From a virus (lineage: Duplodnaviria; Heunggongvirae; Uroviricota; Caudoviricetes): a DNA stretch of 64,000 nt. Positions 15-59,231 of this stretch are shown here, in pieces. The stretch is taken from the IMG/VR virus record IMGVR_UViG_3300028888_000051, positions 163,384 through 227,383 of that record, one strand, 5' to 3'. Each line of letters begins with the position of its first letter. The first letter of the stretch is position 1. Made by a program: the position numbers and the translations under genes. The notes under the pieces were generated by a model. That model saw only the letters and a program-made list of their open reading frames with translations, was not told where the DNA came from and ran no database searches.

Positions 15-2039
15 ATGAGTCGTGAACAAGAAAAAGATGCACGTAGAATGAATGATATTAAATTAGTTAAAAATATTTTTGGTGATGGACCTAATATGGT
101 ATATAATGATTTACATTCTTATATGGGTCAATTTGCTAATAATGAAAAAGCATATAAAGATGCTATTGAACAATTAAAACAAAATAAAGCTGAAAAAAAT
201 AAGGAAAATACAGATAAAGAACAAACAAAAACAGAAGCTTTTGATGATAATCAATTAGATAATGATGAAGTATGGTATTTAGAATATCAAACTAATATTC
301 CGGGAGAAACTTCTTATCTAAATAAAGCTTGGAGAGAAGCTGATTTACTTTCTGATAATTTAGATCAAGCTGCTAAATTTATTTCTCGTGATAATGCAAT
401 GACTGAATTACAAGAATTATATGCATCTAAACAAACTTCTTTTCCATTTAAACCGATAATTGGAGGAGCTTTTGAAGAATGTGGAGCATGTGCTACAACA
501 AATGCGAGTTTAGGTTCAGCTGTACAATATGTTAGTAATAAGAAAAAAGAAGAAAGTTTCGATGAAGAAAAATTAACTGAAGATCAAAGACTTGATGTAA
601 AAGATCGCTCAAAATTAAACAAAGAACTAATTAAAATAGCTAATATTAAAGATTTTGCTGGTAACGTTATTGGCAAAGCAGGTAAAACATTCCAAGAATA
701 TGCTGATAATAATGAATTAGGCTTTAATTATGATGAAAACGGTAATATAATATTTAACCAAAATGATAAAACATTAAGAGTTGCGGATGAATTGGCTAAT
801 CGTAGAATAGCTTTAGATTATGTTACTAATCAACCAATAGGTATGATTGACACTATTGGTAAAGTAAGAGATTTACATGGTAAACAAATTGGCTATTCAG
901 ATACTCGTGAAGCTGCAAAAAATCGTGGTATAGATTTAGATAAGCTTGACATAATATCTACTCATGATGATAATTGGCAATATACACAAAAAGCAGGTTC
1001 ACATTGGCGTAATGATGCAAATGCTATAAAATTTATGGATAAAGAAGGTAACATTAGAGATAAATATGCAGATGCTTGGCAAACTATAGCGAAAGATAAT
1101 AAAAAATTAAGAGATAATCCAGAATTATTACAAACAATGTTTGGTGGTTATTTCGAAAAAGGACAAATCTTAGATCCAAAATCATTTAAACAGCGTGTAT
1201 TAGAAATAAATGATACTTTTGGATTAGAATTAAATCCTGATGAACCAATGATTCCAAGTCAAATGAAAGCAGGTGGAAAACAACAGCAGGAATTTTATAA
1301 ATGGCGTGATAATTACTATAAACCTTTATTTAATGCTTCTCGTAGAAAAAATAAAGCTGCTGATAAAATTAATGCTGATAGAGAAAATTTTAGTAAAGAA
1401 CAAGATGAGTGGAGAGCTTCAGCTAATGATCGTGCTGAACAAGAACAAAGTATTCAGTATTTTATAAATGATATGCAAGATGCTAATAAACAATTTATGG
1501 ATGGTAAAATAAGTGGAAAAGATTTAAAAAATAAATTTATGTCCATTGCCTCAAATGATGCTATTCCAACATATATTAAAAGTAAATTAGCTAAAGATAC
1601 TTATAATGCATTCGCTTCTTATGATGAAGATATGGCTGATATGTGGAAAGAATTGAATAATCAATATTTTACTCAACAAGAATCTGTATTAACTGAAGAT
1701 GATTCTCCTGCTGATTTTGCAGATGGTCCTATATCATCAAATATGACTGGAACTATATCAACTACAGATCAAACAATAGATCAAACAGATACAATTTCAG
1801 ATGGAATAGATGATTATGGATTAGAAGAACCTAATATGAGTGGAGGAGCCAGTTTCGGTGATATAAATATTAATGCTGGGCCAGGAGAAAATGATGAAGC
1901 TCCTATTCAATCTACTGAAAACAAAAGAATTATAGATGTATTAGTAAATGAAAATGATCCATCTCAAATTAAATTAAAAATAAAAGATATGGATACAAAT
2001 AAAATTGAATTAAAAGATTTATCTGAAATTGATGTTTAA
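15..2039 (+). CDS. hypothetical protein (674 aa), Asn/Asp/Glu/Lys-rich with acidic Thr/Asp-rich C-terminal part; possible virion or internal protein
   Basis: Long uninterrupted ORF with ATG at 15; ends 4 nt inside convergent ORF 2036..2410; no catalytic motif recognised by eye. Confidence 0.6.
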   Translation: MSREQEKDARRMNDIKLVKNIFGDGPNMVYNDLHSYMGQFANNEKAYKDAIEQLKQNKAEKNKENTDKEQTKTEAFDDNQLDNDEVWYLEYQTNIPGETSYLNKAWREADLLSDNLDQAAKFISRDNAMTELQELYASKQTSFPFKPIIGGAFEECGACATTNASLGSAVQYVSNKKKEESFDEEKLTEDQRLDVKDRSKLNKELIKIANIKDFAGNVIGKAGKTFQEYADNNELGFNYDENGNIIFNQNDKTLRVADELANRRIALDYVTNQPIGMIDTIGKVRDLHGKQIGYSDTREAAKNRGIDLDKLDIISTHDDNWQYTQKAGSHWRNDANAIKFMDKEGNIRDKYADAWQTIAKDNKKLRDNPELLQTMFGGYFEKGQILDPKSFKQRVLEINDTFGLELNPDEPMIPSQMKAGGKQQQEFYKWRDNYYKPLFNASRRKNKAADKINADRENFSKEQDEWRASANDRAEQEQSIQYFINDMQDANKQFMDGKISGKDLKNKFMSIASNDAIPTYIKSKLAKDTYNAFASYDEDMADMWKELNNQYFTQQESVLTEDDSPADFADGPISSNMTGTISTTDQTIDQTDTISDGIDDYGLEEPNMSGGASFGDININAGPGENDEAPIQSTENKRIIDVLVNENDPSQIKLKIKDMDTNKIELKDLSEIDV

Positions 2040-2410
2040 TCTTTTTTAGCTAATTTTTTATTTTCAATCATTTTAGTAAAAATAAATTTACCTATGTCTG
2101 CTGATAATCGGCAGACATATTCTTTCTGTAAACCAATCGTACTATTTGTTTTTAAATTTTTTATATAAAAATATCTAGAATTATAACTTAAATTAAACAC
2201 ATCTTTTTTATCATTTTTAATAAAATTAAATTCTAAAAGATCTTTTAACTTTTTATGTAAAATTAATAAATTTGTATAATTACCTATATGAAGTGTATAG
2301 TCTTTTTTACGTAAAGCGTAAGTATCGAATTTAACTATACTGTGTTTAGATTTATCAGCTTTAGTTTCAACTATACTAATATCATAATCTTTAGCTGCAG
2401 CCATTGTCAT
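2036..2410 (-). CDS. hypothetical protein (124 aa)
   Basis: ORF with AAAGGAG Shine-Dalgarno sequence (reverse strand of 2415-2425) and a TTCTATAT box about 30 nt upstream. Confidence 0.5.
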   Translation of the reverse strand: MTMAAAKDYDISIVETKADKSKHSIVKFDTYALRKKDYTLHIGNYTNLLILHKKLKDLLEFNFIKNDKKDVFNLSYNSRYFYIKNLKTNSTIGLQKEYVCRLSADIGKFIFTKMIENKKLAKKD

Positions 2411-2437
2411 ATTAAAATCTCCTTTTTAATTTCATCA

Positions 2438-2445
2438 TATAGAAT
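2438..2445 (-). promoter_or_regulatory. GTTCTA-type box (ATTCTATA on minus strand) upstream of 2036..2410
   Basis: Member of the recurrent TTCTA(T/A)A intergenic motif, about 30 nt from the start codon; coordinates by eye. Confidence 0.35.
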
Positions 2446-2587
2446 ATAAGTTTTAATAAAAAAGTAAATAATAATTTTTCCAAAGTTAAGAAATCGCCTA
2501 ACTACAAAGAATTTAGCTCGGCTAATCTTAGCTATACATTTTTTATTTTTAACAAAACAAAAAATATAATATAATAATATATAATTA

Positions 2588-2612
2588 ATAATATAATATA
2601 ATATAATATAAT
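2588..2612. repeat. (ATAAT)5 pentanucleotide microsatellite followed by an A8 run
   Basis: Five perfect tandem ATAAT units read directly in the 330-bp ORF-free divergent intergenic region 2411..2740. Confidence 0.8.
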
Positions 2613-2713
2613 AAAAAAAAACAAAAAATTATTTTAACTTTTGCATTAACACTAACTTTGGCTTTTTATTTTTAAAATTTTTTAAATTTAAATATTTATG
2701 TTTTTTTGAAATA

Positions 2714-2730
2714 AGTTCTAAATTCTAAAA
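2714..2730 (+). promoter_or_regulatory. tandem AGTTCTAAATTCTAAAA box immediately upstream of the RBS of 2741..3298
   Basis: Two overlapping TTCTAAA copies followed by GGAGA and ATG at 2741. Confidence 0.35.
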
Positions 2731-2740
2731 GGAGAAAATT

Positions 2741-3298
2741 ATGCAAATTTATGGTAATCCTAATTTATCTGATAAATTTTTTGTTTATTTAGAAGATAAT
2801 AGTATTAATTATGTAAGAGATTTTGAAACAGCTAAGGGTTATATTCAAAATCCAAATTATAAAAAATGGTTTGGAAAAACTTTATATTGTACAAATGAAG
2901 ATATAGTAAAAGCTTATGATGGTAAATTGTACTTAAAAAGCAAAGTTCCAGAAAATCCAAATGAAATAAAAATATATGATAATAAATCTTTTTTTATTAA
3001 TAATTGTAAAAAATATATTGAAAATACATTAAATGATTTGAGTATTGAATATGGTTATGTATCTTTTTATCAATTAATATCTTGGAAAGATTCAAAAATA
3101 TTAAAAAACAAACAATTAGCTGAAAAAATGTTAAATTATCGTGATAAATTATATAATTTCTATTCAAAAATATACAATAAACATAAAAAACAACTAGAAA
3201 ATACATCAGAATTATTAGATTTATCAAATATTTACACAGAATTTTTAGAAAATATTCCAAAATTTAAAAAAGTTAAAGAAAATGAAACAAACAATTAG
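2741..3298 (+). CDS. hypothetical protein (185 aa)
   Basis: ORF with strong AAAGGAGA RBS; overlaps the next gene by 17 nt. Confidence 0.55.
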   Translation: MQIYGNPNLSDKFFVYLEDNSINYVRDFETAKGYIQNPNYKKWFGKTLYCTNEDIVKAYDGKLYLKSKVPENPNEIKIYDNKSFFINNCKKYIENTLNDLSIEYGYVSFYQLISWKDSKILKNKQLAEKMLNYRDKLYNFYSKIYNKHKKQLENTSELLDLSNIYTEFLENIPKFKKVKENETNN

Positions 3299-4184
3299 AT
3301 TATATATAATACCTACTTATAAAAATCCTTATGTAGATGAATATTATCTATTTGATCAAAATAATAAAAATACACTAGATGTAGTATGGTTAGATAATGC
3401 TTTAATTGAATTAAAAAATAATTATAATATTTTACAAACAGAAATTTGTGGGGGAGAAATAACAGTATTATCTGATTTTTATTTTAATATTTTGTTTCAA
3501 TTAATAAAAATGAATTGTAATAAAATTATTGTATCTACAAATTTTATAGATTTTAATAAATCTATAATAAATCTTTGTGATATAATTAATGTAAAATATA
3601 ATTTTAATGGTTATAGTAAATATAAAACTATTGTTTATAACAATATAAAGGCAGCAATAGCTGAAAATAAAATTATTAATTTAAAATCACTAGATATATC
3701 TTGTAAAAACAATCATAAATTAATTATTGAAGACTTAAATAGATTAAAAATAAAATCTTGGGAAATTATTCCATATCATCAATCTATTTATTCAAAAGCT
3801 ATTCCATTAAATTATACTGAATATGAAGAATTAATAAGAAAATATTTATTTTCAGCAAAAGATATGAAGTTTGCTTTTCAAAATAAACTTCAATTAGATG
3901 AAATCTTACCAATAGATAACTATAATATTAAAAATATTTATATTACACCGAATAATAAATTTGCCATAACAGAATTTAACAAAAACAATAAATTTAAATT
4001 CGTTGAATATGATAATTTATCTAATTTACAGAAAAAAATAGAAGAAATGGAAAATTTACGTGATAATTTTTGTTATAATTGTGATTCTAAATTACGATGT
4101 CTAGCAAATAGATTAATAAATTTAAATTATACTGGTAAAAGTTGTAGTGGTTTTAAAGATTTAATAAAATATTATAACAAATAA
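3282..4184 (+). CDS. radical-SAM-like paralogue lacking the Cys triad (possible pseudo-enzyme)
   Basis: GGE motif (EICGGEIT) and the following STNF segment sit at the same distance from the N-terminus as in the four rSAM paralogues at 21.7-25.5 kb. CxxxCxxC is replaced by YKNPYVDE. Cys-rich C-terminus CYNCDSKLRC..SC. Confidence 0.35.
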   Translation: MKQTIRLYIIPTYKNPYVDEYYLFDQNNKNTLDVVWLDNALIELKNNYNILQTEICGGEITVLSDFYFNILFQLIKMNCNKIIVSTNFIDFNKSIINLCDIINVKYNFNGYSKYKTIVYNNIKAAIAENKIINLKSLDISCKNNHKLIIEDLNRLKIKSWEIIPYHQSIYSKAIPLNYTEYEELIRKYLFSAKDMKFAFQNKLQLDEILPIDNYNIKNIYITPNNKFAITEFNKNNKFKFVEYDNLSNLQKKIEEMENLRDNFCYNCDSKLRCLANRLINLNYTGKSCSGFKDLIKYYNK

Positions 4185-5195: not shown

Positions 5196-7061
5196 ATGAA
5201 ATTTAATATACGCCGGATAGAAATTGAAAATTTTAGAAGTATACAATCTAAGGTTACAATTAATATTAAACCTGGTCTATATTCTATTGAAGGTATAAAT
5301 AATGATGAAAAAACCAGTACGAATGGAGCGGGAAAATCTTCATTAATTTCAGCTTTATATTGGTGTTTAACTGGCAATGCTTTAACAAATGAAGCATTAG
5401 CCGATGATGTCATAAACGCTAAGGTTGGTAAGAATTGTAAAGTAAGTGTTTTTATTGAATCATTACAAGGTGATATAAAAATCACTAGGACAAGAGGAGA
5501 TTCTGAATTTGGTAATAATTTATTTCTTGAAATAGCAGATCAAGATTTAACTTGTCATAAAGTTGCGGATACTCAAACAAGAATTAATCAATTGTTTAAG
5601 ATTCCGTTTGATTTATTACATAGTACTATCATGATGACTCACGACATTAAGTCTGCTTTTTCTGAACTTACTCCACAACAACGTGTACAAACTTTAGAAA
5701 GTATACGTGATTATTCTATTTGGGATAAAGTTAGAGATGAAGCAAATAAAGATATCAAAATATATAACAAAGAAATACAGGAGCTTAATTTGAAATTAAG
5801 TAACATGAATGGTAGTAAGCAAACATATGAAAAAATGATTGCTGCTGCGGGAGAAAACTATAAAGTAGTTGTTAAATCTTTTGATAAAATCGAAATTGAT
5901 AATAAAATTAATAGTCTAATAGAAGAAAATAAAAACTATGCTATTGAAATAGCAAATTTAGAATCTGATATTAAGGAATTTAATAATTTTATTGAAAAAA
6001 ATACAGATAATTCTTTACAAAAAAGACTTAATGAGATTACTGATACTGCTAGCAATATTAAACTTTCACTTCAGAGTGCGGAATACGAACGGAAAGAGAA
6101 AGTAAAGGATATTGATATTATCAATGCTTGGTTTAAAAATGATAAATGTCCTACCTGCGGTCATTTATTGGATAGAACAGAAGAAGAAAAAGCTGTAAAA
6201 TCTAGCCATCGTGATGAATTAAATAAACAGCTCAATCTAATTGATGAAAAAGTAAAAAAATTAAATAATGATATTGCTTTAAAGCGAGAAGAGTGGGCAC
6301 AAGTAAATACTCAATTGAAGGTTAGTGAAAAAACTTTAACAGATTTTAGAGCTAAATTGAGTGAAAGTAATAATAAGATAAATATTCTTAAGAGTAAAGA
6401 GCTTGCAAATACGCGAGAGTTAGCTAAGCTTGAGTTAGAAAAAAATACTCACTCTTCTCAAGTAGATAAGTTAGACAAAGATATTATCTCTTATAAAAAA
6501 GAAATAGAGTCAATCTCAGCTGGCGAAGCTATCATCAATGAACAACTTAAGTTACTTGAAAATAAAAAAGAGTTATCTGATTACTTTTTTAAGTTACTTG
6601 GTAGTAAAGGTGAGTTAAGGCCTTATCTTTTAAAACAAGATATTTGTTATTTAAATAACTGTATGCAAACATATATACATCAATTTTTTGAAAATACTGA
6701 AGTTGAATTACGTTTAGAAGGTCCAAATATAGAGATTTTAATAAATAGTAATGGTATTAAGAAAAAAGTAACAAGCTTATCGGGTGGTGAAAAAAAGCGC
6801 CTTAATATTGCTATTCAACTTGGTCTATATGATTTAATACAAGCTACTTCACAAGTATGTTTTAATGTACTTTGGTTAGATGAAATTGAATCAGAATTAG
6901 ATCAAGCAGGTGTAAATCAATTAATTAATATAATTGAAGATAAATCTAATGATGCTGAAACTGTATTTTGGATTACAAATCATCCAAACGTTAAGGAAAG
7001 TATTACAAATAAAATTATATGTACTAAATCTTTAGGTGTAACAACTATTGAGGAGAGATAA
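5196..7061 (+). CDS. Rad50/SbcC-type recombination ATPase (T4 gp46-like)
   Basis: Walker A NGAGKSS; long coiled coil with central zinc hook CPTCGH; ABC signature LSGGEKKR; Walker B LWLDEIE. Confidence 0.9.
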   Translation: MKFNIRRIEIENFRSIQSKVTINIKPGLYSIEGINNDEKTSTNGAGKSSLISALYWCLTGNALTNEALADDVINAKVGKNCKVSVFIESLQGDIKITRTRGDSEFGNNLFLEIADQDLTCHKVADTQTRINQLFKIPFDLLHSTIMMTHDIKSAFSELTPQQRVQTLESIRDYSIWDKVRDEANKDIKIYNKEIQELNLKLSNMNGSKQTYEKMIAAAGENYKVVVKSFDKIEIDNKINSLIEENKNYAIEIANLESDIKEFNNFIEKNTDNSLQKRLNEITDTASNIKLSLQSAEYERKEKVKDIDIINAWFKNDKCPTCGHLLDRTEEEKAVKSSHRDELNKQLNLIDEKVKKLNNDIALKREEWAQVNTQLKVSEKTLTDFRAKLSESNNKINILKSKELANTRELAKLELEKNTHSSQVDKLDKDIISYKKEIESISAGEAIINEQLKLLENKKELSDYFFKLLGSKGELRPYLLKQDICYLNNCMQTYIHQFFENTEVELRLEGPNIEILINSNGIKKKVTSLSGGEKKRLNIAIQLGLYDLIQATSQVCFNVLWLDEIESELDQAGVNQLINIIEDKSNDAETVFWITNHPNVKESITNKIICTKSLGVTTIEER

Positions 7062-7064
7062 TTA

Positions 7065-8099
7065 ATGAAAATAATGGTTTTTGGAGATATACATTTTCAT
7101 AATTCACATCGTTTTTCAAATATTGAACCTCAAGGATATACAACTAGAGAAATTGAACAATATAATTGTGCAAATACATTAATTAAAATAGCCAAAGAAG
7201 AAAATATTGATAAAGTTGTATTTTTAGGTGATGCTTGGCAAGCTGTTGGAGATACAATTTCTGCTGAAACGCAATCAATTATGATTGAATTTTTTGCTCA
7301 ATTGAGAAGATATTTACCAAATTTAGCAGTAATTCTTGGTAATCATGATTTAATTAATAATGATCCAACTATAAATAAACTTAATTTTCTTAAATATATG
7401 CCTCCAATTGAATTTTTTTCAAAACCTGAGGTAAAAAATGAGTTTGTTTATATGCCTTATTGTTTAAATGACGATGAAGCTATTCGTTTTTTAGAAAATA
7501 TTTCAGAAAAACAAAATAAAATAGTTTTTTCACATTTAGAATTAGGAGGAATAAATTTGGGTAATGGTATTTTTACTCAAAAAGGCGTTCCATTAGATTT
7601 ACTTAAACAATTTAAAATGACTTTACAAGGACACTATCATTCAGGTGGAAGTTATGGTCATAAAATTCAAATAGCTGGTTCTACACAAAGGCTTTCTTTT
7701 AAAGATAAAGGTATTTCACGTAATAATATTATTATTTATAATACTGATACTGATAAAATTATTAGAAAAAGTTTTGAAAGTCCAGATTGGTTAGTATTTG
7801 ATGATGATAACATAGAGAATATTCTTAAAATAGACAATAATAATTACGTTAAGGTTGATTTAACCAGTGATATTTTATTAACATCTGAAATAAAAACTAA
7901 ATTAGAACAAGTAAAAAATAAAACAGTACATATAGATTTAACACGTATATCTATAAATAAACAAATTACAGAAGAAATATCAGAAAAAGAAGATAATTTA
8001 GATGTAATAAGAAAATTTATTATTAAATCTAATAATACAGATGATAAAAAAGAACAATTAATACAAGAAGGAGTAAGATTATTAAATAAAATTAGTTAA
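7065..8099 (+). CDS. Mre11/SbcD-type nuclease (T4 gp47-like)
   Basis: Calcineurin-like phosphoesterase motifs GDIH, LGDAW, GNHD, SHLE, GHYH; directly follows the Rad50-like gene. Confidence 0.9.
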   Translation: MKIMVFGDIHFHNSHRFSNIEPQGYTTREIEQYNCANTLIKIAKEENIDKVVFLGDAWQAVGDTISAETQSIMIEFFAQLRRYLPNLAVILGNHDLINNDPTINKLNFLKYMPPIEFFSKPEVKNEFVYMPYCLNDDEAIRFLENISEKQNKIVFSHLELGGINLGNGIFTQKGVPLDLLKQFKMTLQGHYHSGGSYGHKIQIAGSTQRLSFKDKGISRNNIIIYNTDTDKIIRKSFESPDWLVFDDDNIENILKIDNNNYVKVDLTSDILLTSEIKTKLEQVKNKTVHIDLTRISINKQITEEISEKEDNLDVIRKFIIKSNNTDDKKEQLIQEGVRLLNKIS

Positions 8100-50991: not shown

Positions 50992-51210
50992 ATGTATGAA
51001 AAATTAATAGATCTTAAAGATAATTTTTTATTTTGTATTGCAACTACATTTGTTGGAATTTTAATTATGATAATAGCTAGTGTTATTATAATTATAACAC
51101 TTCCAATGTATTATTTATTTTGGATAAATCCAGTATTTGAAATTTATCAAAATTTAATTTGGAAAATATATGATATATTATTTCAAATTGGATCAGATGA
51201 TGAAATTTAA
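50992..51210 (+). CDS. small membrane protein (72 aa, two hydrophobic segments); holin-like topology
   Basis: FLFCIATTFVGILIMIIASVIIIITLPMYYLFWINPVF; AAAGGAAA RBS. Confidence 0.45.
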   Translation: MYEKLIDLKDNFLFCIATTFVGILIMIIASVIIIITLPMYYLFWINPVFEIYQNLIWKIYDILFQIGSDDEI

Positions 51211-54200
51211 ATTAAGTCTTGCAATTCTTCAGAAGATTGATCTATAAAATTTGAATAATCATTTACTTTTTCTTTTATTTGATTAGAAGAAATATATTCA
51301 TATTGCGGAAAATCTGAATAATTAAGCTGTGCATTATATATAAAACCAACAATTACATCAGCTAAATCTTTTAATTCAGTAGTTCGAGTTACTTTTCCTC
51401 TATCAAAAACAAGAGCCGATAATTCTTTTCTGAGTTTTGGACATATTCCTACTTTTACCTGTCCTAATTCCATTAAAGTAGATGCATTAACATAAGGTTC
51501 AAGTTTTATATCGACTGAAACTTTATTTACTACTTCGAAACATCCCGATTTAGCTAAATTTTGTTGAAAAATTTCTCCATTCCATTGATCGCTTGATACT
51601 GTATGAATTAGCATATTACGTTCAATTACTAAATTTATTAAAAAAGTTTCTATTGCATGTATATCTATTTTATTTCTTGCATTCACAGCTATAAGTAAAT
51701 CAACTACATATATTGTTTCATTTTCTTTTTTATTTTCATTATAACGCCATTCTTTATGACCAATACATATACCAGCATCACATTGTCCAGAATCACCACC
51801 TCCTGCTAAATCTACATGACAATAACGTTTTGCAAAAGGAGCTCTTTTAAATATCCATCTACCATCTGTTAATTGTTCCCATAAATTATATTCATCTAGT
51901 AAAGCTAATATATCATTATTATCACTTATATCAGCTTTAATATTAAATTCTGGAGGCAATTCAGCATCTTCAATTTTTGATATATCTTTAAAGACTGTAC
52001 TGTTATCTACAGTTGTCATTCCTGCAATATCTTGAATAGACTGATCTAATTGTAATTCAAATTTTTCTTTATATACAGTTGGAACATTTATTACTTCACA
52101 TCCAATGGGTGGTATATAATTTCCATCTTCTAAAGCTTTCAATTCACCAGGATCGGTAAATATTTTAGAAGGAATTGAGCCATTACCAACAAGAACAGGA
52201 AATGTAGAGCCATCACCTAAAAACTCAGGATCTTCTTTAACTTCCCAAAGCCGAGGCATAAGAATAAGAATAGATGGATCATTTTTTGGCAATCGACGTA
52301 TGTATTCACCAATAGGACTATTTGTTGTACGAGCTGATGATACAACTGACTGAAATACTAAAGGACTTCCTTGAAAACGTGAACTAAAACGATTATCAAC
52401 TGAATTAAGAAGTGCCAAAGCTTCATCTACACCTTTTTCATTGATCTCATCCATAAAGCTATTTACTATATTCAAACCTATAGTATGAGTTATACCTGAA
52501 CCAGATGTAATAATAATATTGTCTGGAAAATATATCGTGCCTGTCGATTTTTCCACATTAAATGGTATTGGACAATGTGGATCCGATAAATCAAAATTTT
52601 CAAAAGATTGCATTCGCATAACTCTTTGAAAACACGGCATTGTTTCCATAAGTTTAACAAATGGTAATAAATTTGTTTCATAAACTTGTTTTAAAGTCAT
52701 AGAAATAATAACATTTGCTATTGTTGCATCACTATCTATATTAAATACTGCTCTAGGATAACGTAAACATAATATACGATATAAAACATATAAAAAAGCT
52801 TTACGAGCAATTGTTGACTTACCACAATTATGTGCAATTATACCAGCCTTTAAAGCAAAATTATGATTTTTTTCTGTAGTTATATCATAAACTTGTTGTT
52901 TACCTATATATTCTATAGAAATTATTTTATGATTGTATATTTTTTTACGCTTGTAATTTTCTTTAGCCCCTAAAGTAGGATCATACCAAGGCTCTCTTGT
53001 ATGAATAAATGCTAATAATTCAATGTATTTTTGATTTTCTTTTCCATGGAATCTTGCAATAGTAGCTAATACTTGTTTAGCCAATATAATTGCTTTTTCT
53101 TCAGGACTTTTGTTGGCTTTTAAATTACGCATATTTTCAGCCATTTTTTTAGAAATATTTCTAGCCTTTTCTGTTTTATTTCTTTCTATTAAAGTTTTAC
53201 TTGCTCTTTGTCTATATTCTTCACTATGTGGACCATTCCAACCGGCAAGCGAAGCTTTTCTTTGGTGTTCTGAATCTTGATGTAGTTTATTCCATCCAAT
53301 TTTTCTTTTTGCTTCTATCTCTTCATAATCTAAGCGAGCTTTATAGGTAATATGACTTTTTATTCCTTTTTGTCTTCTGTATTCTTTAAATTCATCACCT
53401 CTAATTGAAGCATTATATTCTTTCCATCTTCTACCTCCAACTTTAGCGTGATATTCCCAATGATATTTGTGAGGTATAATAGCTAAATTTTGAGGTCTAT
53501 CATCTAATTTATTAAAATTTTTATGGTGAACAACTTGTCCAGTTTTATATAAAGTTTTCCATTTACCTACTATTTGATATCTTTTTTCCCATTTTTCAGT
53601 AGTATTATTTTTTATTTGAATATATCCTTTATCACTAATTTTTGAATAATAAGGCATCATAGATTCACCAGATTTTAATCCAGTATCTATACTTTTCCAT
53701 TTATTTTTTCTTGTTAAAAATCTATGATCTGATGTACATTTAATTATTTCACCATTGTCTAAAGTTATTTTATACACATCTTTTATACCACTACAAAATA
53801 CATTAATTATCTTATCTGGTTCCCAAGTTTTATTAAATGTATTAAATGATAATACCCATTCATTATTATAATTATTAAGTAATTCATAAATTGTTTTATT
53901 ACCATTTAAAGTAGCTACTATCGTATCACCGGTTAAGCAACCAATACTTCCACCAAATATAGTTTTTCTTACTGGTGAGCCTTCCCTAAACATATATTCA
54001 AGTTGTTGTCGCCAATAAGGATATAATGTAGCATTACTATTATACATATAAAATTTACCAGATAAAAATTCTTCAATATTAGGCATAGGTCGTCTATATA
54101 AAAGATTATCAATTTGATCTGTTAAATCAGAATCCTGATTTGTTAATGTCAAATATAAAGCAATACGTTTTTGTATTTCTTGTTGCTTTTTAAATTCATC

Positions 54201-54344
54201 TGGCATATAATGCTCTTCATAATATGCTAAAATGTCTATAAAATCTTGTGACATAATAACATTTTGAAGTTCATTTGCATTATTAAATGAAACTATTGGA
54301 AGATTTTCTAATTTTTTTGCAATATCAGTAGGAAGTTGTTCCAT
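51207..54344 (-). CDS. terL: terminase large subunit, interrupted by an intein in the Walker A motif
   Basis: The exteins join to FGGSIG|CGKST (P-loop). Walker B-like SFMDEINE. Nuclease-domain pattern CHVDLAGGGD...DAGICIGH. Confidence 0.85.
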   Translation of the reverse strand: MEQLPTDIAKKLENLPIVSFNNANELQNVIMSQDFIDILAYYEEHYMPDEFKKQQEIQKRIALYLTLTNQDSDLTDQIDNLLYRRPMPNIEEFLSGKFYMYNSNATLYPYWRQQLEYMFREGSPVRKTIFGGSIGCLTGDTIVATLNGNKTIYELLNNYNNEWVLSFNTFNKTWEPDKIINVFCSGIKDVYKITLDNGEIIKCTSDHRFLTRKNKWKSIDTGLKSGESMMPYYSKISDKGYIQIKNNTTEKWEKRYQIVGKWKTLYKTGQVVHHKNFNKLDDRPQNLAIIPHKYHWEYHAKVGGRRWKEYNASIRGDEFKEYRRQKGIKSHITYKARLDYEEIEAKRKIGWNKLHQDSEHQRKASLAGWNGPHSEEYRQRASKTLIERNKTEKARNISKKMAENMRNLKANKSPEEKAIILAKQVLATIARFHGKENQKYIELLAFIHTREPWYDPTLGAKENYKRKKIYNHKIISIEYIGKQQVYDITTEKNHNFALKAGIIAHNCGKSTIARKAFLYVLYRILCLRYPRAVFNIDSDATIANVIISMTLKQVYETNLLPFVKLMETMPCFQRVMRMQSFENFDLSDPHCPIPFNVEKSTGTIYFPDNIIITSGSGITHTIGLNIVNSFMDEINEKGVDEALALLNSVDNRFSSRFQGSPLVFQSVVSSARTTNSPIGEYIRRLPKNDPSILILMPRLWEVKEDPEFLGDGSTFPVLVGNGSIPSKIFTDPGELKALEDGNYIPPIGCEVINVPTVYKEKFELQLDQSIQDIAGMTTVDNSTVFKDISKIEDAELPPEFNIKADISDNNDILALLDEYNLWEQLTDGRWIFKRAPFAKRYCHVDLAGGGDSGQCDAGICIGHKEWRYNENKKENETIYVVDLLIAVNARNKIDIHAIETFLINLVIERNMLIHTVSSDQWNGEIFQQNLAKSGCFEVVNKVSVDIKLEPYVNASTLMELGQVKVGICPKLRKELSALVFDRGKVTRTTELKDLADVIVGFIYNAQLNYSDFPQYEYISSNQIKEKVNDYSNFIDQSSEELQDLI
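52827..53939 (-). mobile_element. class-1 intein (371 aa) with HNH endonuclease domain
   Basis: Starts CLTGDTIV; block B CTSDHRF; HNH core VVHHKNFNKLDDRPQNLAIIPHKYHWEYH; ends VYDITTEKNHNFALKAGIIAHN followed by the +1 Cys. Coordinates derived from residues 136-506 of the track ORF. Confidence 0.8.
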
Positions 54345-54380
54345 TAATGTAATTATCCCTCTAAACTTTTTTAGATATTA

Positions 54381-54390
54381 TATAGAACAT
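54381..54390 (-). promoter_or_regulatory. ATGTTCTATA box (minus strand) upstream of terL
   Basis: About 40 nt from the terL start at 54344. Confidence 0.4.
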
Positions 54391-54410
54391 AATCAAAAGT
54401 AAATATATAA

Positions 54411-54476
54411 AGTTCTATTTAAAATAGAAAAGTATTAACAGAAAAAAGAACTTAAAATAGCATTGTTCTAATTTAT
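54411..54476 (+). promoter_or_regulatory. two GTTCTA boxes (AGTTCTATTTAAAATAG and TTGTTCTAATTTATAAAG) upstream of the tail tube gene
   Basis: At about 54411 and 54464; ATG at 54527. Confidence 0.4.
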
Positions 54477-54526
54477 AAAGAATTAATCCCCTATTAAGAC
54501 ATTATATTTATAAGGAATAATAACAC

Positions 54527-55084
54527 ATGTTAAAGCCATTAAGTGCCGTTAGAAATCTTAAAGACCCATTAAAACAATTTGTATGTAACTTTAGTTTAGC
54601 ATTTCCGGCAAATAGCCCATTAAATCAATATATTGATACAGAAGATCTTATTTTACGTGCAACTAGTTATGGTTTACCAGGTTTTAAAGCTGATGAAACA
54701 GTAGTTACTTGGTCTGGTTTTGAAAGACATTATGGTGGTAAACAAACACGTCAAGGTAGTTGGCAATGTACAATTGTTGAAGTATGGGATGCTCGTATTA
54801 CAGAAATATTTAAACAATGGTTTAATGCATACCATCGTTATAAAGAAGGTACAATCGCATTATTAGAATCATATACAGGTACAGTTAATTTAGCATTAGT
54901 TGATCCTGATGTATATGATCCAAAACCAGATGGAATTGGTAAATATGATTTACGTTTATATGACGTATTTCCTGTATCTTGTGATATGCCAACTATTGAC
55001 GCTTCTAGTTCAGAGACTATTAATATTAATATTAATTTGAATTACAACTACTTCTTAGCAGGCAGTGAAATAGATGGTCAATAA
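54527..55084 (+). CDS. tail tube protein (T4 gp19-like)
   Basis: Pattern F.CNFSL..P......L.LRA.S..LPG......V.W.G......G...R.G.W..T..E.WD..I...F..W.N resembles the gp19 family (from memory); size 185 aa. Confidence 0.5.
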   Translation: MLKPLSAVRNLKDPLKQFVCNFSLAFPANSPLNQYIDTEDLILRATSYGLPGFKADETVVTWSGFERHYGGKQTRQGSWQCTIVEVWDARITEIFKQWFNAYHRYKEGTIALLESYTGTVNLALVDPDVYDPKPDGIGKYDLRLYDVFPVSCDMPTIDASSSETINININLNYNYFLAGSEIDGQ

Positions 55085-55114
55085 TTAGACTTTTACATTT
55101 TGTTATTCTTTTTG

Positions 55115-55145
55115 AGGGACTTGAAATATAGTCCCTTATTTATTT
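55115..55145 (+). terminator. rho-independent-type terminator after the tail tube gene
   Basis: Stem AGGGACT/AGTCCCT, 8-nt loop, T-rich tail. Confidence 0.6.
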
Positions 55146-55149
55146 TTAC

Positions 55150-55161
55150 GGTTTTACATTT
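55150..55161 (+). repeat. GGTTTTACATTT direct repeat, left copy
   Basis: Identical 12-mer at 57170..57181; a related CTTTTACATTTT at 55090..55101. Confidence 0.6.
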
Positions 55162-55170
55162 TTTATATTT

Positions 55171-55189
55171 AGTTCTATTATATATAAAG
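55171..55189 (+). promoter_or_regulatory. AGTTCTATTATATATAAAG box upstream of the homing-endonuclease-like gene
   Basis: About 40 nt upstream of ATG 55218. Confidence 0.4.
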
Positions 55190-55217
55190 TTTAAATTAAT
55201 ATTGATAAAGTGAGAAT

Positions 55218-57167
55218 ATGAAAAATATTTGTAAAAATTGCGGCAAAGAATATGAATTTGAACCAAAGCATGGAACCTATAAATTTAAGTATTGTTCTCA
55301 AGAATGTAAACATGCCTTTGCGAAAAAAGATGAAGAACCACAATATAGGATTTGTGAATATTGTGGTAAAGAATATTGGTGGAGTAATTCGTTTAAAAAT
55401 TATAAAGAATATGTACATATAGATACAAAACGTTTTTGTTCTGCTGAGTGTAGTAAAAATTATAAAAAAGAAAAAATTAAACAAACATGTTTAAAAAAAT
55501 ATGGTGTTGAATATATTTCACAAACTGCAGATGTTAAAGAAAAAATGAAAAATGCATGGAAAAATAAATCAGAAAAAGAATTAAAATTGCGTCAAGAAAG
55601 TAGAAAGCAAACTAATTTAAAAAAATATGGTGTTGAACATGTATCTAAATTATCTGAAATTAAAGAAAAAGTAAAGCAAACAAATTTAAAAAAATTTGGT
55701 GCTGAATTTTATACACAAACAGATGAATATAAAGAAAAATATAAACAAACCAATCTTAAAAAGTATGGTGTAGAGCATTGTTCACAAGTACCAAAAATAG
55801 CAGAAAAAATAAAAAATAGTCTATTAAATAAATCTAAAGAAGAATGGGTTAAAATTATAGATAAGAGAAAGCATACTAATTTAGAGAAGTATGGTACAGA
55901 AAGTGCTTCTCAGAATAATGATATAAAACAAAAAGTAAAACAAACTAATTTAAAAAAATTTGGAAACGAAATAGCAATTCAATCAGATATTATACAATCT
56001 AAAATTAAACAAAATAATCTTGAAAAATATGGTGTAAAATATAGTATAGCATCTAATGAAGTACAAGAAAAAATTCGTACTACAAATTTGAAAAGATATA
56101 ATTATGAATATCCATTTCAATCTGAAGAATTAAGAAAAATTATGGAAGAAAATAGAAAAAAGACGAATCTTAAAAAATATGGTACAGAAAACATTAGTCA
56201 AGTTAAAGAATTTAAAGAAAAAGCAAAAAATACATGTTTGAAGAAATATGGTGTACCATATAATTGTATGACTGAAAATTGTTTAGAAGTAGGACATAGT
56301 ACTATATCTAAAATAAATTTGGCTTTTAAAAATAAATTAGATAAATTAAATATTCAAAATAAACTAGAATTTCATATTGATAAATGGAGTTATGATTTTT
56401 TATGTAATGATAAGTTTTTAATTGAAATTAATCCTAGCTATACACATAATTCATCTAATACTAAAAAACGATTGGAATTTATGAAGCCAAAAGATAAATA
56501 CTATCATTTTAACAAAACTAAATTAGCTTATGAAAATGGTTATCAGTGTATTCATATATGGGATTGGGATGATAAAGAAAAAATTTTAAATATACTTGTT
56601 GATAAAAAGAAAATATATGCTAGAAAATTAATATTAAAAAATGTATCAAATGAAGAATGTAATGAGTTTTTAAATTCATATCATTTACAAAATACATGTA
56701 AAGGACAAACTATTAGATTAGGTTTATATAAAGATAATGAATTGATACAATTAATGACATTTGGAAAAGCGAGATATACAAAAAATTATGAATATGAATT
56801 ATTAAGATTATGTACAAAAGCAGAATATAAAGTTATCGGAGGAGCAGAAAAATTATTTAAACATTTTTTAATTATATATAATCCAAAATCTATAATTTCT
56901 TATTGTGATAATTCAAAATTTTCAGGAGAAGTATACAAAAGATTAAATATGAATTTGAAAGATTATGGAACACCAAGAAAGCATTGGTATCATATAGAAA
57001 AAAATAAACATATTACAGAAGCACTTTTACTTCAAAGAGGTTATTCACAATTACACGGTGATAAAGAACATATAAAAGGTGAAAATAATGAAAAACTGAT
57101 GTTAGAAGCAGGATATGTAGAAATATATGATTCTGGTCAAAGTACATATGTTTGGCATAAAAACTAA
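55218..57167 (+). CDS. free-standing homing-endonuclease-like protein (649 aa): two Zn ribbons, ten tandem repeats, nuclease-like core, C-terminal domain
   Basis: CKNCG..CSQEC and CEYCG..CSAEC. Ten copies of K.TNLKKYG.E..SQ...(I/V)KEK.KQ. YDFLCNDKFLIEINPSYTHN resembles the DUF559/Vsr-like PD-(D/E)xK core. ARKL..KNVS..E...FL..YHLQ tail. Confidence 0.55.
   Translation: MKNICKNCGKEYEFEPKHGTYKFKYCSQECKHAFAKKDEEPQYRICEYCGKEYWWSNSFKNYKEYVHIDTKRFCSAECSKNYKKEKIKQTCLKKYGVEYISQTADVKEKMKNAWKNKSEKELKLRQESRKQTNLKKYGVEHVSKLSEIKEKVKQTNLKKFGAEFYTQTDEYKEKYKQTNLKKYGVEHCSQVPKIAEKIKNSLLNKSKEEWVKIIDKRKHTNLEKYGTESASQNNDIKQKVKQTNLKKFGNEIAIQSDIIQSKIKQNNLEKYGVKYSIASNEVQEKIRTTNLKRYNYEYPFQSEELRKIMEENRKKTNLKKYGTENISQVKEFKEKAKNTCLKKYGVPYNCMTENCLEVGHSTISKINLAFKNKLDKLNIQNKLEFHIDKWSYDFLCNDKFLIEINPSYTHNSSNTKKRLEFMKPKDKYYHFNKTKLAYENGYQCIHIWDWDDKEKILNILVDKKKIYARKLILKNVSNEECNEFLNSYHLQNTCKGQTIRLGLYKDNELIQLMTFGKARYTKNYEYELLRLCTKAEYKVIGGAEKLFKHFLIIYNPKSIISYCDNSKFSGEVYKRLNMNLKDYGTPRKHWYHIEKNKHITEALLLQRGYSQLHGDKEHIKGENNEKLMLEAGYVEIYDSGQSTYVWHKN
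55476..56282 (+). repeat. ten tandem coding repeats of about 23-43 codons inside 55218..57167
   Basis: Repeat cores TCLKKYGVEY, TNLKKYGVEH, TNLKKFGAEF, TNLKKYGVEH, TNLEKYGTES, TNLKKFGNEI, NNLEKYGVKY, TNLKRYNYEY, TNLKKYGTEN, TCLKKYGVPY. Confidence 0.8.
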
Positions 57168-57169
57168 AA

Positions 57170-57190
57170 GGTTTTACATTTCTATATAAA
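57170..57190 (+). promoter_or_regulatory. GGTTTTACATTT right repeat copy fused to a TTCTATATAAA box upstream of 57233..57601
   Basis: 12-mer identical to 55150..55161; the box is about 45 nt from ATG 57233. Confidence 0.45.
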
Positions 57191-57232
57191 TGATATATAT
57201 TTAATTAAGTATTAAATAGTGGCAAATATAAT

Positions 57233-57601
57233 ATGAATAGAATATATAATCTTGTACGTGATGATTTTAATTTAAATGATAGTAGTATTTTGTGTAGGCA
57301 AAGTACTTTATTTTGTATCTTAGAAGAAATAGCTACTAATGATTATTTTTCTGCTAAAGAATTTTTTATTAAACCTCAGGATGGTTATTATGGAAGTCGT
57401 GTCACATTAAGAAGAGAATCATGGGGTTATAAAATAGCAATAAAGCATAGTACTTTACCAGAAGATCCAACACAAACGTATAGACTTTATATGACTAGAA
57501 AAGAAATCGTAGAATTATATACATATTTTAAGTTATTTAATTTAAAAGTTATTAATCTTATTAATCATATTCATATTAATACTAGAGAGGCATATTTTTA
57601 A
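57233..57601 (+). CDS. hypothetical protein (122 aa)
   Basis: ORF following the promoter-like box; 1-nt overlap with the next gene. Confidence 0.5.
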   Translation: MNRIYNLVRDDFNLNDSSILCRQSTLFCILEEIATNDYFSAKEFFIKPQDGYYGSRVTLRRESWGYKIAIKHSTLPEDPTQTYRLYMTRKEIVELYTYFKLFNLKVINLINHIHINTREAYF

Positions 57602-58440
57602 TGAAAAATTTAAGAGAAATTGCTAATGATATAGCTGATAATCTAGGCATTTTAAGACCGACAGATAAACTTTTAAACAAAAATAGTTTATGGTATGATG
57701 TTTTATATAATACTTTAAAAACTTTAAATAAAGAATTTTCTGAAGAACTTGAATATTCTGAAACTATTGTTTTTGATAGTGAAACTTTTGAAGAAAAATG
57801 TATATTAGAAAAAGAAACAGATTATCCAGTTTTTGATGAATATTTATGTTTTTTATGTGGAATATATTTTTATTTACGTTATACAGCTCAGCCTTATGCT
57901 AAAGCTTGGGCTGAATATAATAATGAATTAGAAAAAAGAAAAGGTCCAAAAAAGCTTTGCTTGCAAGAAAATCATCTCTATAAGCATGGTACTAAACTTT
58001 ATTATGTTTCAGAATGGACATCTGGTAATGAAAAGGAGCTTGATGTTGAGGTATTTGAACAATGTAAGAAACCAAATGAAAATATTTATGAAGATACATT
58101 GTTTGATGATGATGTACAAATTAAAAGTGTTGAAGATTTTGAAAAATATATTGGAGACAGAAAGCTTGTTGATTTAGGTTTACTTGAAAATACAGTATAT
58201 AAATTCAAAGAGGTTCCAGGATTTGGACGTTGTACAAATAAAGTGCTTGTATATACATGTAGTTATGATAAAGATGATCTATGGAGAGCAAAATTAGAAA
58301 AACAAGAAATGCTTGAAATATTAGAAAAATGTAAACCTTTAATTACATCATATATTCAAGAGCTTTATTCAAAAAATGATGTGAATTATAAAGATTGGGA
58401 AAACGTACTTAAGGAGATAAATAAATGGATAAAAAAATAA
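57601..58440 (+). CDS. hypothetical protein (279 aa)
   Basis: Operon member. Confidence 0.5.
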   Translation: MKNLREIANDIADNLGILRPTDKLLNKNSLWYDVLYNTLKTLNKEFSEELEYSETIVFDSETFEEKCILEKETDYPVFDEYLCFLCGIYFYLRYTAQPYAKAWAEYNNELEKRKGPKKLCLQENHLYKHGTKLYYVSEWTSGNEKELDVEVFEQCKKPNENIYEDTLFDDDVQIKSVEDFEKYIGDRKLVDLGLLENTVYKFKEVPGFGRCTNKVLVYTCSYDKDDLWRAKLEKQEMLEILEKCKPLITSYIQELYSKNDVNYKDWENVLKEINKWIKK

Positions 58441-58856
58441 ATGTATGGATGTCTCCAAAGTGTGGTGAAAATTGTTCAATATCAATTAATAATAGTATAT
58501 TGTTTACATTATATGATCCTAAAGAAATGTTTTTAATTAATTTAGCTAATATAATTGAAATGAAAAATAATAATAAAGAACAAGAAATTAAAGATAATAC
58601 AATAATTACTCTTCAAAATATTAAAGATGATATACAAATAAAATATTGGTTATTAAATGAAGATAACAATATAGCAACAGCTTTTGTTGAAATGGTAATT
58701 AAACAAAAAAATTATAATGAACTTTATGATATGTATAGTTTATTTAAAATGAATAAAAATTATATAAATAAATATATAAATATTATAGAATCTGATAATT
58801 TTAAATATAATGAATTAAGACGGTTATTTCAAAATGGATGTCTTATTTTAAATTGA
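58425..58856 (+). CDS. hypothetical protein (143 aa)
   Basis: Operon member; 16-nt overlap with the upstream gene. Confidence 0.5.
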   Translation: MDKKINVWMSPKCGENCSISINNSILFTLYDPKEMFLINLANIIEMKNNNKEQEIKDNTIITLQNIKDDIQIKYWLLNEDNNIATAFVEMVIKQKNYNELYDMYSLFKMNKNYINKYINIIESDNFKYNELRRLFQNGCLILN

Positions 58857-58866
58857 GTTCTATGAA
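58855..58866 (+). promoter_or_regulatory. GAGTTCTATGAA box overlapping the stop of 58425..58856
   Basis: About 30 nt upstream of ATG 58893. Confidence 0.35.
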
Positions 58867-58892
58867 AAGTTAGTTAAGTTAAGGGTGATAAA

Positions 58893-59129
58893 ATGACAGA
58901 ACAAGAAGAAATTGAAGAAAAAATTAAACAAACAGCTATTAGAAATAATTTTGATTTATCTGATAATTTACATAAAATTGCTAAAGGTAAATTAATGTTT
59001 TTTGGAACAAAAATGTGGATGAAATGTCCATGTGATCCAGATAGTGATAGAGCTTGTATAAGTAAACATTGTAAACAAGATATTGAAAATGATGGTATTT
59101 GTCATTGTCAGTTATATAAAAAAAGATAA
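58893..59129 (+). CDS. small Cys-rich protein resembling the ferredoxin-thioredoxin reductase catalytic subunit
   Basis: CPC-x8-C-x4-C-x9-CHC-x-LY compares with the FTR CPC...CPC...CHC.LF arrangement (from memory). Confidence 0.4.
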   Translation: MTEQEEIEEKIKQTAIRNNFDLSDNLHKIAKGKLMFFGTKMWMKCPCDPDSDRACISKHCKQDIENDGICHCQLYKKR

Positions 59130-59155
59130 CTGATTAGAGTGTTATTTTTTATAAA

Positions 59156-59200
59156 TGGAAAAATAATTCAGTAGAATATTTTTATTACTTTTATTCTATA
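59156..59200 (+). promoter_or_regulatory. TGGAAAAATAATT ... GTAGAATA hairpin ... TTCTATATAAT element upstream of recA
   Basis: Shares ATAAATGGAAAAATAATT and GTAGAAT with the element at 60971..61034. Weak 7-bp stem TAGAATA/TATTCTA. Confidence 0.4.
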
Positions 59201-59231
59201 TAATACTTTTAATTATAAAAAGGAAATTAAA

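Follow-up and report, generated by a model that had tools for sequence, protein, structure and literature searches.

A probable mobile endonuclease cassette at the tail tube locus

Within the window analysed here, a 64,000-nt stretch of a Caudoviricetes genome (IMG/VR record IMGVR_UViG_3300028888_000051), the spacer separating the tail tube gene from the gene that follows it is occupied by what is probably a free-standing Hef-like homing endonuclease cassette. It comprises a promoter and one open reading frame, and lies between the tube-gene terminator and the next promoter. Mobility of the cassette is supported: it is present in some genomes and cleanly absent from others that are nearly identical. 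The preliminary description of this DNA had proposed a free-standing mobile gene of homing-endonuclease type at this place, which is borne out by both family profiles and empty-site alleles, and the open reading frame (55218-57167, 649 aa) lies where it had been drawn. The gene is intergenic, has its own promoter-like site and is not part of an intron or intein. Features of the locus are collected in Table 1. This region of the window holds several selfish genes, of which the cassette is one more.

Table 1. Features of the tail tube locus, in window coordinates.
Feature	Position	Strand	Basis or remark
Tail tube gene (185 aa), adjoining the cassette on its left	54527..55084	+	PHROG 45 'tail tube', E 7.5e-10
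Third, partial 12-mer copy, CTTTTACATTTT	55090..55101	+	Without -10 hexamer; reads TTTTTATGTTTT in empty alleles
Intrinsic-terminator-like hairpin and T-run, 3' of tube gene	55113..55148	+	Scan; 9-pair stem
Segment of 2028 nt in occupied alleles, 11 nt (TTTAATTTTAT) in empty alleles	55136..57163	+	Junction alignment
Left GGTTTTACATTT; most likely -35 region (TTTACA, 55153-55158) of the endonuclease gene's promoter-like site	55150..55161	+	Kept together with the gene in L096-L100
GTTCTA box overlapping the -10 hexamer TATTAT (55176-55181); phage-wide upstream motif	55172..55190	+	
Putative Hef-like homing endonuclease gene	55218..57167	+	ORF, 649 aa; DUF7487, PHROG 3339, AlphaFold2 model
Two Cys4 zinc-ribbon-like units, aa 1-80	55218..55457	+	Cys columns conserved in most of 66 homologues; beta-hairpins in model
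Ten helical 23-aa repeats, some with extensions, aa 81-352	55458..56273	+	Repeat list; helix-loop-helix units in model
Predicted Vsr-like PD-(D/E)xK nuclease domain, aa 353-462	56274..56603	+	Model matches Vsr-like nucleases
Predicted diverged Mom-like GNAT-fold domain, aa 463-649	56604..57164	+	Foldseek, BFVD, profile-profile, Pfam in homologues
Right GGTTTTACATTT; most likely -35 region of the downstream gene's resident promoter	57170..57181	+	Counterpart of the single GGCTTTACATTT of empty alleles
Promoter-like site TTTACA-17-TATATT for gene 57233	57173..57201	+	
Downstream gene, 122 aa	57233..57601	+	ORF; in other haplotypes, a 114-aa gene and a 125-aa version stand here

Homologues of the tail tube protein carry the Pfam domain PF23849 (Phage_TTP_2). 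Downstream of its stop codon (55082-55084), the terminator that had been noted is present as a terminator-like hairpin at 55113-55138 followed by a T-run, and it is kept in both occupied and empty alleles. On the other side, the 122-aa gene was found only on cassette-bearing contigs. A second indel, which involves the 114-aa gene, has its breakpoint exactly after the 12-mer repeated at this locus.

Occupied and empty alleles

We reached close relatives by looking up contigs that encode exactly the same tube protein; an IMG/VR scan for tube relatives and a tblastn search of the tube protein against GenBank phages returned none, and megablast of positions 53500-59000 against GenBank phages gave no match. 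The identical tube protein occurs on 10 metagenomic contigs. Eight carry the cassette gene, at 98-100% identity, and two (L003 and L005), from independent samples, are empty at the same precise junction. The exchanged segment was delimited by aligning the window, L001, L002 and L004 (occupied) with L003 and L005 (empty). Differences between the two kinds of allele lie 22, 29, 39, 40, 46, 61 and 91 nt to the left of the junction, becoming sparse beyond, and 8, 17, 21, 22, 23 and 29 nt to its right. We do not take this cluster to prove a cleavage site or a co-conversion tract, since non-coding DNA diverges faster anyway and the empty haplotypes number only two.

In L013, L014, L015 and L096-L100, tube genes that are 56-80% identical are followed directly on their 3' side by orthologues of the endonuclease gene (protein identity 48-67%). 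All six contigs whose tube gene is 62% identical are occupied as well. A further relative, L107, is empty. Empty-site variants exist, and the gene is not universal at the locus. Alleles of 591, 598 and 701 aa were found at the same site in backgrounds 97-100% identical, with a mosaic gene centre, and L097 differs from L096 in the same pattern.

Since most relatives are occupied, the element is possibly near fixation, without current selection for homing. Near fixation across relatives would suit a decayed or domesticated former homing gene that now acts as a DNA-binding or regulatory protein without nuclease-driven mobility, and a homing-cycle model predicts decay after fixation (PMC1654191). 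The GTTCTA box likewise ties the gene into the phage's own promoter system, given that 17 of 32 copies in the window are intergenic where intergenic DNA makes up 10.5% of it (binomial P 2.6e-10). However, the open reading frame is intact, its candidate catalytic residues D393, E403 and H410 are unchanged across 66 homologues, empty and occupied sites still coexist among the nearest genomes and allele replacement is ongoing, so we regard domestication as quite improbable.

Origin of the repeated 12-mers

The 12-mer GGTTTTACATTT had been reported at 55150 and 57170, and the pair had been read as the scar of a mobile gene that duplicated a 12-nt promoter-proximal target on insertion. Both positions are correct, and the word occurs exactly twice in the window. 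As a duplication would predict, a single copy (GGCTTTACATTT) stands in empty alleles, whereas the occupied alleles of the window lineage contain two. An exact 12-mer common to both short spacers arose in only 0.9-3.2% of Markov simulations, a frequency that makes it only modestly unusual, and other exact 12-14-mers repeat within the AT-rich 2.5 kb around the cassette. The repeat is thus informative only because of the empty-allele comparison and the enrichment of its 9-nt core.

Both of these speak against a scar. The pattern GGYTTTACA-N17-TATWWT, which contains the core, recurs in promoter-like settings across the window: it has six matches where 1.37 would be expected, a number not attained in any of 100 shuffles, and five of the six lie in intergenic spacers upstream of genes. 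L096 has retained both the gene and its cassette promoter, the left copy included (92% over 50 nt), yet L096-L100 have no right-hand copy. The left and right sides of the cassette in L013 and L014 are not repeats of each other. Moreover, the occupied allele becomes homologous to the empty site at CTAAAT, 6 nt ahead of the right copy, which identifies that copy as simply the resident promoter; to the left of the left copy, the occupied allele departs from the empty-site sequence. We found no transposase or integrase domain in the 649-aa protein (Pfam, PHROG and other domain searches), and the only terminal inverted repeats are weak (73% over 22 nt) and unconvincing. Enzymes of this nuclease class are mobilised through break repair, a route that leaves no target duplication (PMC3239194). 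Target duplication is accordingly not supported, and we consider it highly improbable.

Most likely, judging from sequence, each 12-mer is the -35 region of a promoter, and both promoters, the cassette's own and the resident one, belong to a single class used by the phage. The 12-mers would have supplied at most microhomology. The right copy overlaps TTCTATATAAA at 57180-57190, upstream of the gene at 57233, in line with the fusion that had been described there. The related CTTTTACATTTT noted after the tube stop is also present at 55090, probably by chance. We do not count this third TTTTACATTTT as belonging to the element: it has no -10 hexamer and is kept neither in empty alleles nor in L096.

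Family assignment and DNA-recognition modules

Profile searches place the 649-aa protein in a large, already annotated family of Hef-like homing endonucleases, of which it appears to be an ordinary but well-documented new member. It matches PHROG 3339 'homing endonuclease' (E 2.5e-88), PHROG 559 (E 3e-44) and Pfam DUF7487 (E 2.6e-55), and its AlphaFold2 model has a mean pLDDT of 88.6. Sequence searches of PDB, NCBIfam and PADLOC gave no match, and a full-text literature search for 'DUF7487' found nothing. The family has at least 6759 proteins at E <= 1e-10. By tblastn it is present in 405-420 GenBank phage records, many annotated as Hef or Hef-like and some as 'putative nuclease/acetyltransferase'; identity to Hef-annotated genes is 25-37%, and 37% is the highest in any GenBank phage record. 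Some Campylobacter phages have 9-11 family copies per genome, and a search of the 64-kb window found no paralogue. Such multi-copy, widespread occurrence points to selfish-element behaviour of the family in other phages.

The two zinc-ribbon-type cysteine units that had been recognised at the N-terminus, with CxxC...CxxxC spacing (C5/C8/C26/C30 and C46/C49/C74/C78), recur in most homologues and take the form of beta-hairpins in the model; one of 66 homologues matches Pfam zf-FCS_1 (E 0.0025). They are followed by ten K.TNLKKYG repeats, confirming the count given previously, which start at aa 88, 130, 153, 176, 218, 241, 264, 287, 314 and 337 and have a period of 69 or 126 nt at the DNA level. 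The array is the presumed DNA-recognition module of the modelled protein. Its region is swapped between alleles in relatives; because entire arrays are exchanged, it is conceivable that the 23-aa repeats read DNA modularly, and they may do so one repeat after another. No NUMOD motif was matched at E <= 1 in the 649-aa protein, whose N-terminus consists of zinc ribbons and DUF7487 repeats.

Nuclease and Mom-like domains

The model predicts a nuclease fold of the Vsr-like variant of PD-(D/E)xK. The segment YDFLCNDKFLIEINPSYTHN, previously likened to a DUF559/Vsr-type core, falls within the domain whose model matches Vsr-like nucleases, so that a nuclease fold is indeed detected. Residues D393, E403, H410, Y429, H430, K433, D449 and W450 are invariant in this domain, and position 405 is N in 48 sequences and D in 18.

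The extra C-terminal domain that had been noticed exists as a separate domain in the model. Its best PDB match by Foldseek is phage Mu Mom (8bv8_A, E 2.4e-7, 203 columns), ahead of generic GNATs, and in BFVD it matches 'Mom' of phage FSL SP-031 (E 1.7e-9, target TM 0.69). Scores from sequence and profiles are weaker: hhalign against the lone Mu Mom sequence gave E 0.17, below significance; profile-profile comparison with a 31-sequence Mom alignment was marginal (E 0.0012, probability 19%); and Pfam Mom (PF25680) is matched by 10 of 66 homologues (best E 1.1e-6), with no match at E <= 1 for the 649-aa protein itself. The Mom relationship therefore depends chiefly on the fold match.

Mu Mom is a tRNA-dependent DNA adenine-modifying GNAT enzyme, for the activity of which R111, S124, D149 and R151 are essential, alanine mutants of S124 and R151 being dead (PMC13219725). 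The Mom-like domain keeps equivalents of Mom H58, R111, D149, Y159 and W181. Of these, R111 and D149 correspond in the alignment to R530 and D564, which are conserved. Mom S124 and R151 are invariant in 31 true Mom proteins; opposite the former stands A543 or E544, and opposite the latter S566 or a gap. By alignment, then, the domain lacks two Mom-essential residues. It is the most conserved part of the protein, with a mean identity to homologues of about 62% as against about 50% for the nuclease part, and may serve nucleic-acid binding or recognition rather than Mom-type catalysis.

These observations bear on a different function, in which the protein is a single-chain weapon resembling restriction-modification: the Mom-like domain modifies the phage's own DNA, the nuclease degrades DNA that lacks the modification, whether from the host or from a competing phage, and patchiness reflects accessory-gene turnover. 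Iyer, Anantharaman, Krishnan, Burroughs and Aravind 2021 predict this role for jumbo-phage fusions of Mom with a restriction-endonuclease fold (PMC7824862), and both the strong conservation of the domain and the retained Mom equivalents would agree with it. Against it stand the substitutions at S124 and R151, the missing Pfam Mom and PADLOC matches of the 649-aa protein, and the 9-11 copies in Campylobacter phage genomes, which are typical of selfish genes. Site-specific homing also accounts better for the DNA-binding array, which is long and variable, and for the fixed site beside a conserved gene. We judge the weapon reading unlikely, although it and homing are not mutually exclusive.

Proposed mode of mobility

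Under the homing endonuclease reading that we prefer, the protein would act in mixed infections by binding a long site in relatives without the cassette, through its two zinc ribbons and ten helical repeats. The Vsr-like domain (D393, E403, N405 and H410) would then cut near the junction of tube gene and intergenic spacer, and recombinational repair from a cassette-bearing genome would copy the 2028-nt cassette together with nearby markers.

The conserved Mom-like domain plays no part in this simple homing model. A distinctly unlikely extension is that the domain is an active, diverged module for DNA modification or modification sensing, which marks the cassette genome so that the fused nuclease spares its carrier. 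If true, this would be a homing endonuclease with built-in modification-based self-immunity, and one polypeptide would be both a selfish element and a minimal restriction-modification system. The missing S124 and R151 equivalents narrow the question of the domain's role.

Comparison with known systems

To our knowledge, a single experimental study of the Hef-like family exists, from 2005. That work concerns Hef of the T-even-type phage U5 (Sandegren, Nord and Sjoberg 2005, cited in PMC2988022). The window gene would be linked to the studied U5 protein by annotation chains only. It belongs to the same sequence family as the Hef-like genes and shares with them a free-standing, intergenic position beside a conserved structural gene and a nuclease followed by a GNAT-like C-terminus. 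Its N-terminal module is longer than in most Hef-like matches, whose alignments begin only at about aa 150. Hef-like annotations are found in Campylobacter phages CP220/CPt10, LIMEstone1, PA5oct, RaK2/K64-1 and others; the neighbour of F-LimVIII, the Hef-like gene of LIMEstone1, is 'Tail tube protein' (PMC3296691).

'Hef type homing endonucleases' have been placed in the Vsr-like 'EDxHD' family of I-Bth0305I (PDB 3r3p), the composite active site of which comprises E170, D196, N208, H213 and D222 (PMC3239194). Compared by sequence spacing, which covers D196, N208 and H213, D393, N405 and H410 of the window protein stand at the same intervals, 12 and 5 residues. In contrast to the window gene, I-Bth0305I is intron-encoded, uses NUMOD-type DNA-binding motifs and has no GNAT domain. 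Mu Mom and the C-terminal domain share LGhF..LVG, ELxR, SaxD, VY, WYH and (E/H)IT, of which WYH and (E/H)IT lie within residues ~175-209, the HTH-like insertion of Mom. However, Mom is a stand-alone enzyme, and the equivalents of its S124, R151 and Y59 are not conserved in the window protein.

In T4-type phages, promoter/stem-loop (PeSL) cassettes offer a further parallel. Both are intergenic cassettes that bring their own promoter and are set between a hairpin terminator and the promoter that follows; both have recombination joints at repeated regulatory elements, although shuffling at promoter repeats is inferred for the window locus. The seg and mob genes of T4 are likewise free-standing endonuclease genes (PMC2988022), of a different nuclease class, GIY-YIG and HNH.

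For the phage itself, the finding is ordinary. Its value is that occupied and empty alleles, matched by nature and differing at a junction defined to the base, are available at this locus as a substrate for testing cleavage and homing in a family carried by hundreds of sequenced phages. The fusions of Iyer et al. 2021 (PMC7824862) have the same two-domain core and also come from large phages, and they and the window protein very probably belong to the same protein family. Those authors read the fusion as restriction-modification-like, whereas the population data for the window locus, with empty and occupied alleles and allele replacement, point to homing-type mobility. The searchable literature did not link the 'Hef-like homing endonuclease' and 'restriction-fold plus Mom fusion' readings, and these two readings of one architecture are brought together here.

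Occupied and empty alleles at the tail tube locus

The window (26% G+C) looks like a phage genome. We found no close relative among GenBank phages, and all four of the window proteins that we looked up were identical to those of a 227-kb metagenomic contig (ERZ27257205 k141_5434835). Every feature listed for the locus in the preliminary description was located in the window (Table). The closest contigs were found by exact look-up of the tail tube protein, which returned ten. Eight carried the Hef-like endonuclease gene at 98-100% identity, while in L003 and L005, which came from separate samples, the tube gene was followed directly by the next genes. After the terminator stem ending in GTCCC, these empty alleles continue with TTTAATTTTAT and then CTAAATGGCTTTACATTT, the resident promoter of the downstream gene. 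The junction is precise: 11 nt of the empty alleles are replaced by 2028 nt in the occupied ones (window 55136..57163), and the shared CTAAAT contains the stop codon of the endonuclease gene. Eight occupied and two empty sites behind genes for the identical tube protein thus support the original suggestion that the gene is mobile. Differences between occupied and empty alleles are concentrated around the junction, in the nearest ~90 nt of the left flank and ~30 nt of the right, which is weak evidence for homing because this DNA is non-coding and there are only two empty haplotypes.

In more distant relatives (L013-L015, L096-L100), tube genes of 56-80% identity are followed immediately by orthologues of 48-67% identity. 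All six contigs whose tube gene is 62% identical were occupied at this site, and L107, a more distant relative, was empty. Of the other 75 family members retrieved from IMG/VR, none had a clear tube gene nearby, with one weak match (L072).

Alleles of 591 and 701 aa share one site within a single background, with flanks 97-100% identical. The two proteins have highly similar zinc ribbons and agree at every one of the last ~270 residues (100% identity), whereas they diverge far more in the repeat array and the first half of the nuclease domain and have unequal numbers of repeats. This mosaic indicates recombination within the endonuclease gene, and the pattern fits a site-specific selfish gene with turnover of its DNA-recognition module. 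We consider it likely that this is a free-standing homing endonuclease cassette, active or recently active, and quite improbable that it is a domesticated remnant. By analogy with its family, the protein would bind and cut DNA, and repair would copy the cassette.

Table. Features of the endonuclease locus and its alleles
Feature	Position	Remark
Tail tube gene	54527..55084	PHROG 45
Partial copy of 12-mer	55090	
Terminator-like hairpin	55113-55138	
GGTTTTACATTT 12-mer, left and right copies	55150 and 57170	no further copy in window
Endonuclease ORF	55218..57167	649 aa
K.TNLKKYG repeats (ten)	aa 88 to 337	DNA period 69 or 126 nt
CxxC...CxxxC units (two)		in 649-aa protein
Zinc-ribbon hairpins	aa 1-80	AlphaFold2 model
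Helical repeat array	aa 81-352	AlphaFold2 model
Small alpha/beta domain	aa 353-462	AlphaFold2 model
Larger alpha/beta domain	aa 463-649	AlphaFold2 model
Mosaic alleles	L101 4199..5974; L102 4206..6311; also L106	591 aa (L101) versus 701 aa (L102)
Second indel	window 57181..57250; L002 6312..6700; L003 4236..4620	
(A)AGTTCTAWAWW examples	2715, 12100, 12254, 15570, 18616, 25482(-), 25491, 27922, 30243(-), 30339, 50253, 54388(-), 54412, 54465, 55172, 58857	

Flanking 12-mers and promoter boxes

The two 12-mers had been read as a target duplicated upon insertion. Empty alleles carry one copy (GGCTTTACATTT) and occupied alleles of the window lineage carry two, and an exact 12-mer common to both spacers arose in 0.9-3.2% of simulations, which taken alone is only mildly unusual. 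However, the word GGYTTTACA recurs in the window (6 observed, 1.37 expected, and 0 of 100 shuffles reaching 6), and five of the six copies are intergenic and upstream of genes, with TATWWT at 17 nt. In L096-L100 the left copy and GTTCTA box are conserved along with the gene (92% over 50 nt) despite the absence of a right copy, the next gene directly following the endonuclease gene. A TTTAC-type box is retained on the left side in L013 and L014, where the two sides are nevertheless not repeats of each other. Moreover, homology with the empty site sets in 6 nt ahead of the right copy, and break-repair homing creates no duplications. Target duplication is therefore very improbable. The 12-mers, which score as TTTACA-17-TATTAT and TTTACA-17-TATATT, are best read from sequence as putative -35 regions of two same-class promoters, one belonging to the cassette and one resident.

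A second indel involves a 114-aa gene that L002, L003, and L005 have and the window lacks. The window diverges from these haplotypes right after GGTTTTACATT, so the left breakpoint is the same promoter box; the window's next gene has another 5' end (122 aa versus 125 aa). We infer that promoter boxes act as recombination joints, and the second indel counts in favor of this. GTTCTA is a genuine upstream motif throughout the phage: 17 of 32 copies fall within the intergenic 10.5% of the window (binomial P = 2.6e-10), 15 of them no more than 120 nt from a same-strand start. The longer (A)AGTTCTAWAWW, which precedes many start codons window-wide by 20-60 nt, is probably a phage-specific promoter element.

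Other genes nearby also vary. Just upstream of the tube gene, a 1045-aa gene (51207..54344, minus strand), putatively that of the large terminase, has an intein-type insert (its Pfam matches being Intein_splicing and MJ0330_N). L003 has a 1018-aa version (359..3415) with a LAGLIDADG_3 endonuclease in place of the window's insert type, and shorter versions occur in L097 (1429..3306, 625 aa) and L107 (1016..3358, 780 aa). This variation among close relatives constitutes a second selfish-element polymorphism less than 1 kb from the cassette. L003 also has an extra 326-aa DUF723 gene (6644..7624) just upstream of recA, at a position corresponding to window ~59130-59231 between a 78-aa gene and recA. 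Absent from the window, it seems to be a further gene of variable presence within this 6-kb stretch, and its pattern is opposite to that of the Hef-like gene.

Protein family and the Mom-like domain

The sole Pfam match of the 649-aa protein was DUF7487 (E = 2.6e-55), covering the repeat array, and PHROGs assigned it to family 3339, 'homing endonuclease' (E = 2.5e-88). With tblastn, 420 phage records matched at ≤ 37% identity, many annotated as Hef, Hef-like homing endonuclease, or 'nuclease/acetyltransferase'. The family reaches 9-11 copies per genome in some Campylobacter phages, and metagenomic membership is very large. Assignment to this known family is well supported, and the gene is an ordinary addition to it. 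The AlphaFold2 model, built with 66 homologues as input (mean pLDDT 88.6), bears out the nuclease fold proposed earlier.

The N-terminal DNA-binding module varies across these homologues (P0065, P0070, P0079, P0091, and others in alignment A1), with C2H2 zinc fingers in 8 of 66, an HTH_28 domain in three, and a zf-FCS_1 match in one; the core of repeats, nuclease, and Mom-like domain is kept in all those with varied N-termini. Parts of the model also matched proteins of giant eukaryotic viruses in BFVD (D2XAY4, W8W1R2, A0A1V0SKN3, A0A481YUV1; Foldseek E = 1e-10 to 1e-16), with sources including Marseillevirus, an iridovirus, and Klosneuvirus and labels of 'zinc-ribbon-containing protein' or nuclease. 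The combination of repeats and nuclease thus seems to exist outside phages as well.

Conservation within the protein is highest in its C-terminal domain, whose nearest solved structure was phage Mu Mom (8bv8, Foldseek E = 2.4e-7), with generic GNAT acetyltransferases ranking behind it. A 'Mom' protein in the viral structure library matched too (E = 1.7e-9). Pfam Mom (PF25680) was matched by 10 of the 66 homologues and not by the window protein itself. Alignments with Mu Mom and with 31 members of the Mom family paired H489, R530, D564, Y573, and W590 with Mom H58, R111, D149, Y159, and W181. Mom S124 aligned with A543 or E544, and R151 with S566 or a gap. Both residues are invariant among Mom proteins, and replacing either with alanine abolishes activity (PMC13219725). 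Since neither is matched, Mom-type catalysis by this domain is doubtful.

In jumbo phages, fusions of Mom domains with restriction-fold nucleases have been interpreted as restriction-modification-like (Iyer et al. 2021, PMC7824862). A weapon of that kind, which would be compatible with homing, is an unlikely account of the present gene. The question of real interest is what role a conserved Mom-like domain and a swappable repeat array play in a homing enzyme; the jumbo phage fusions themselves were described (PMC7824862) before the present case.
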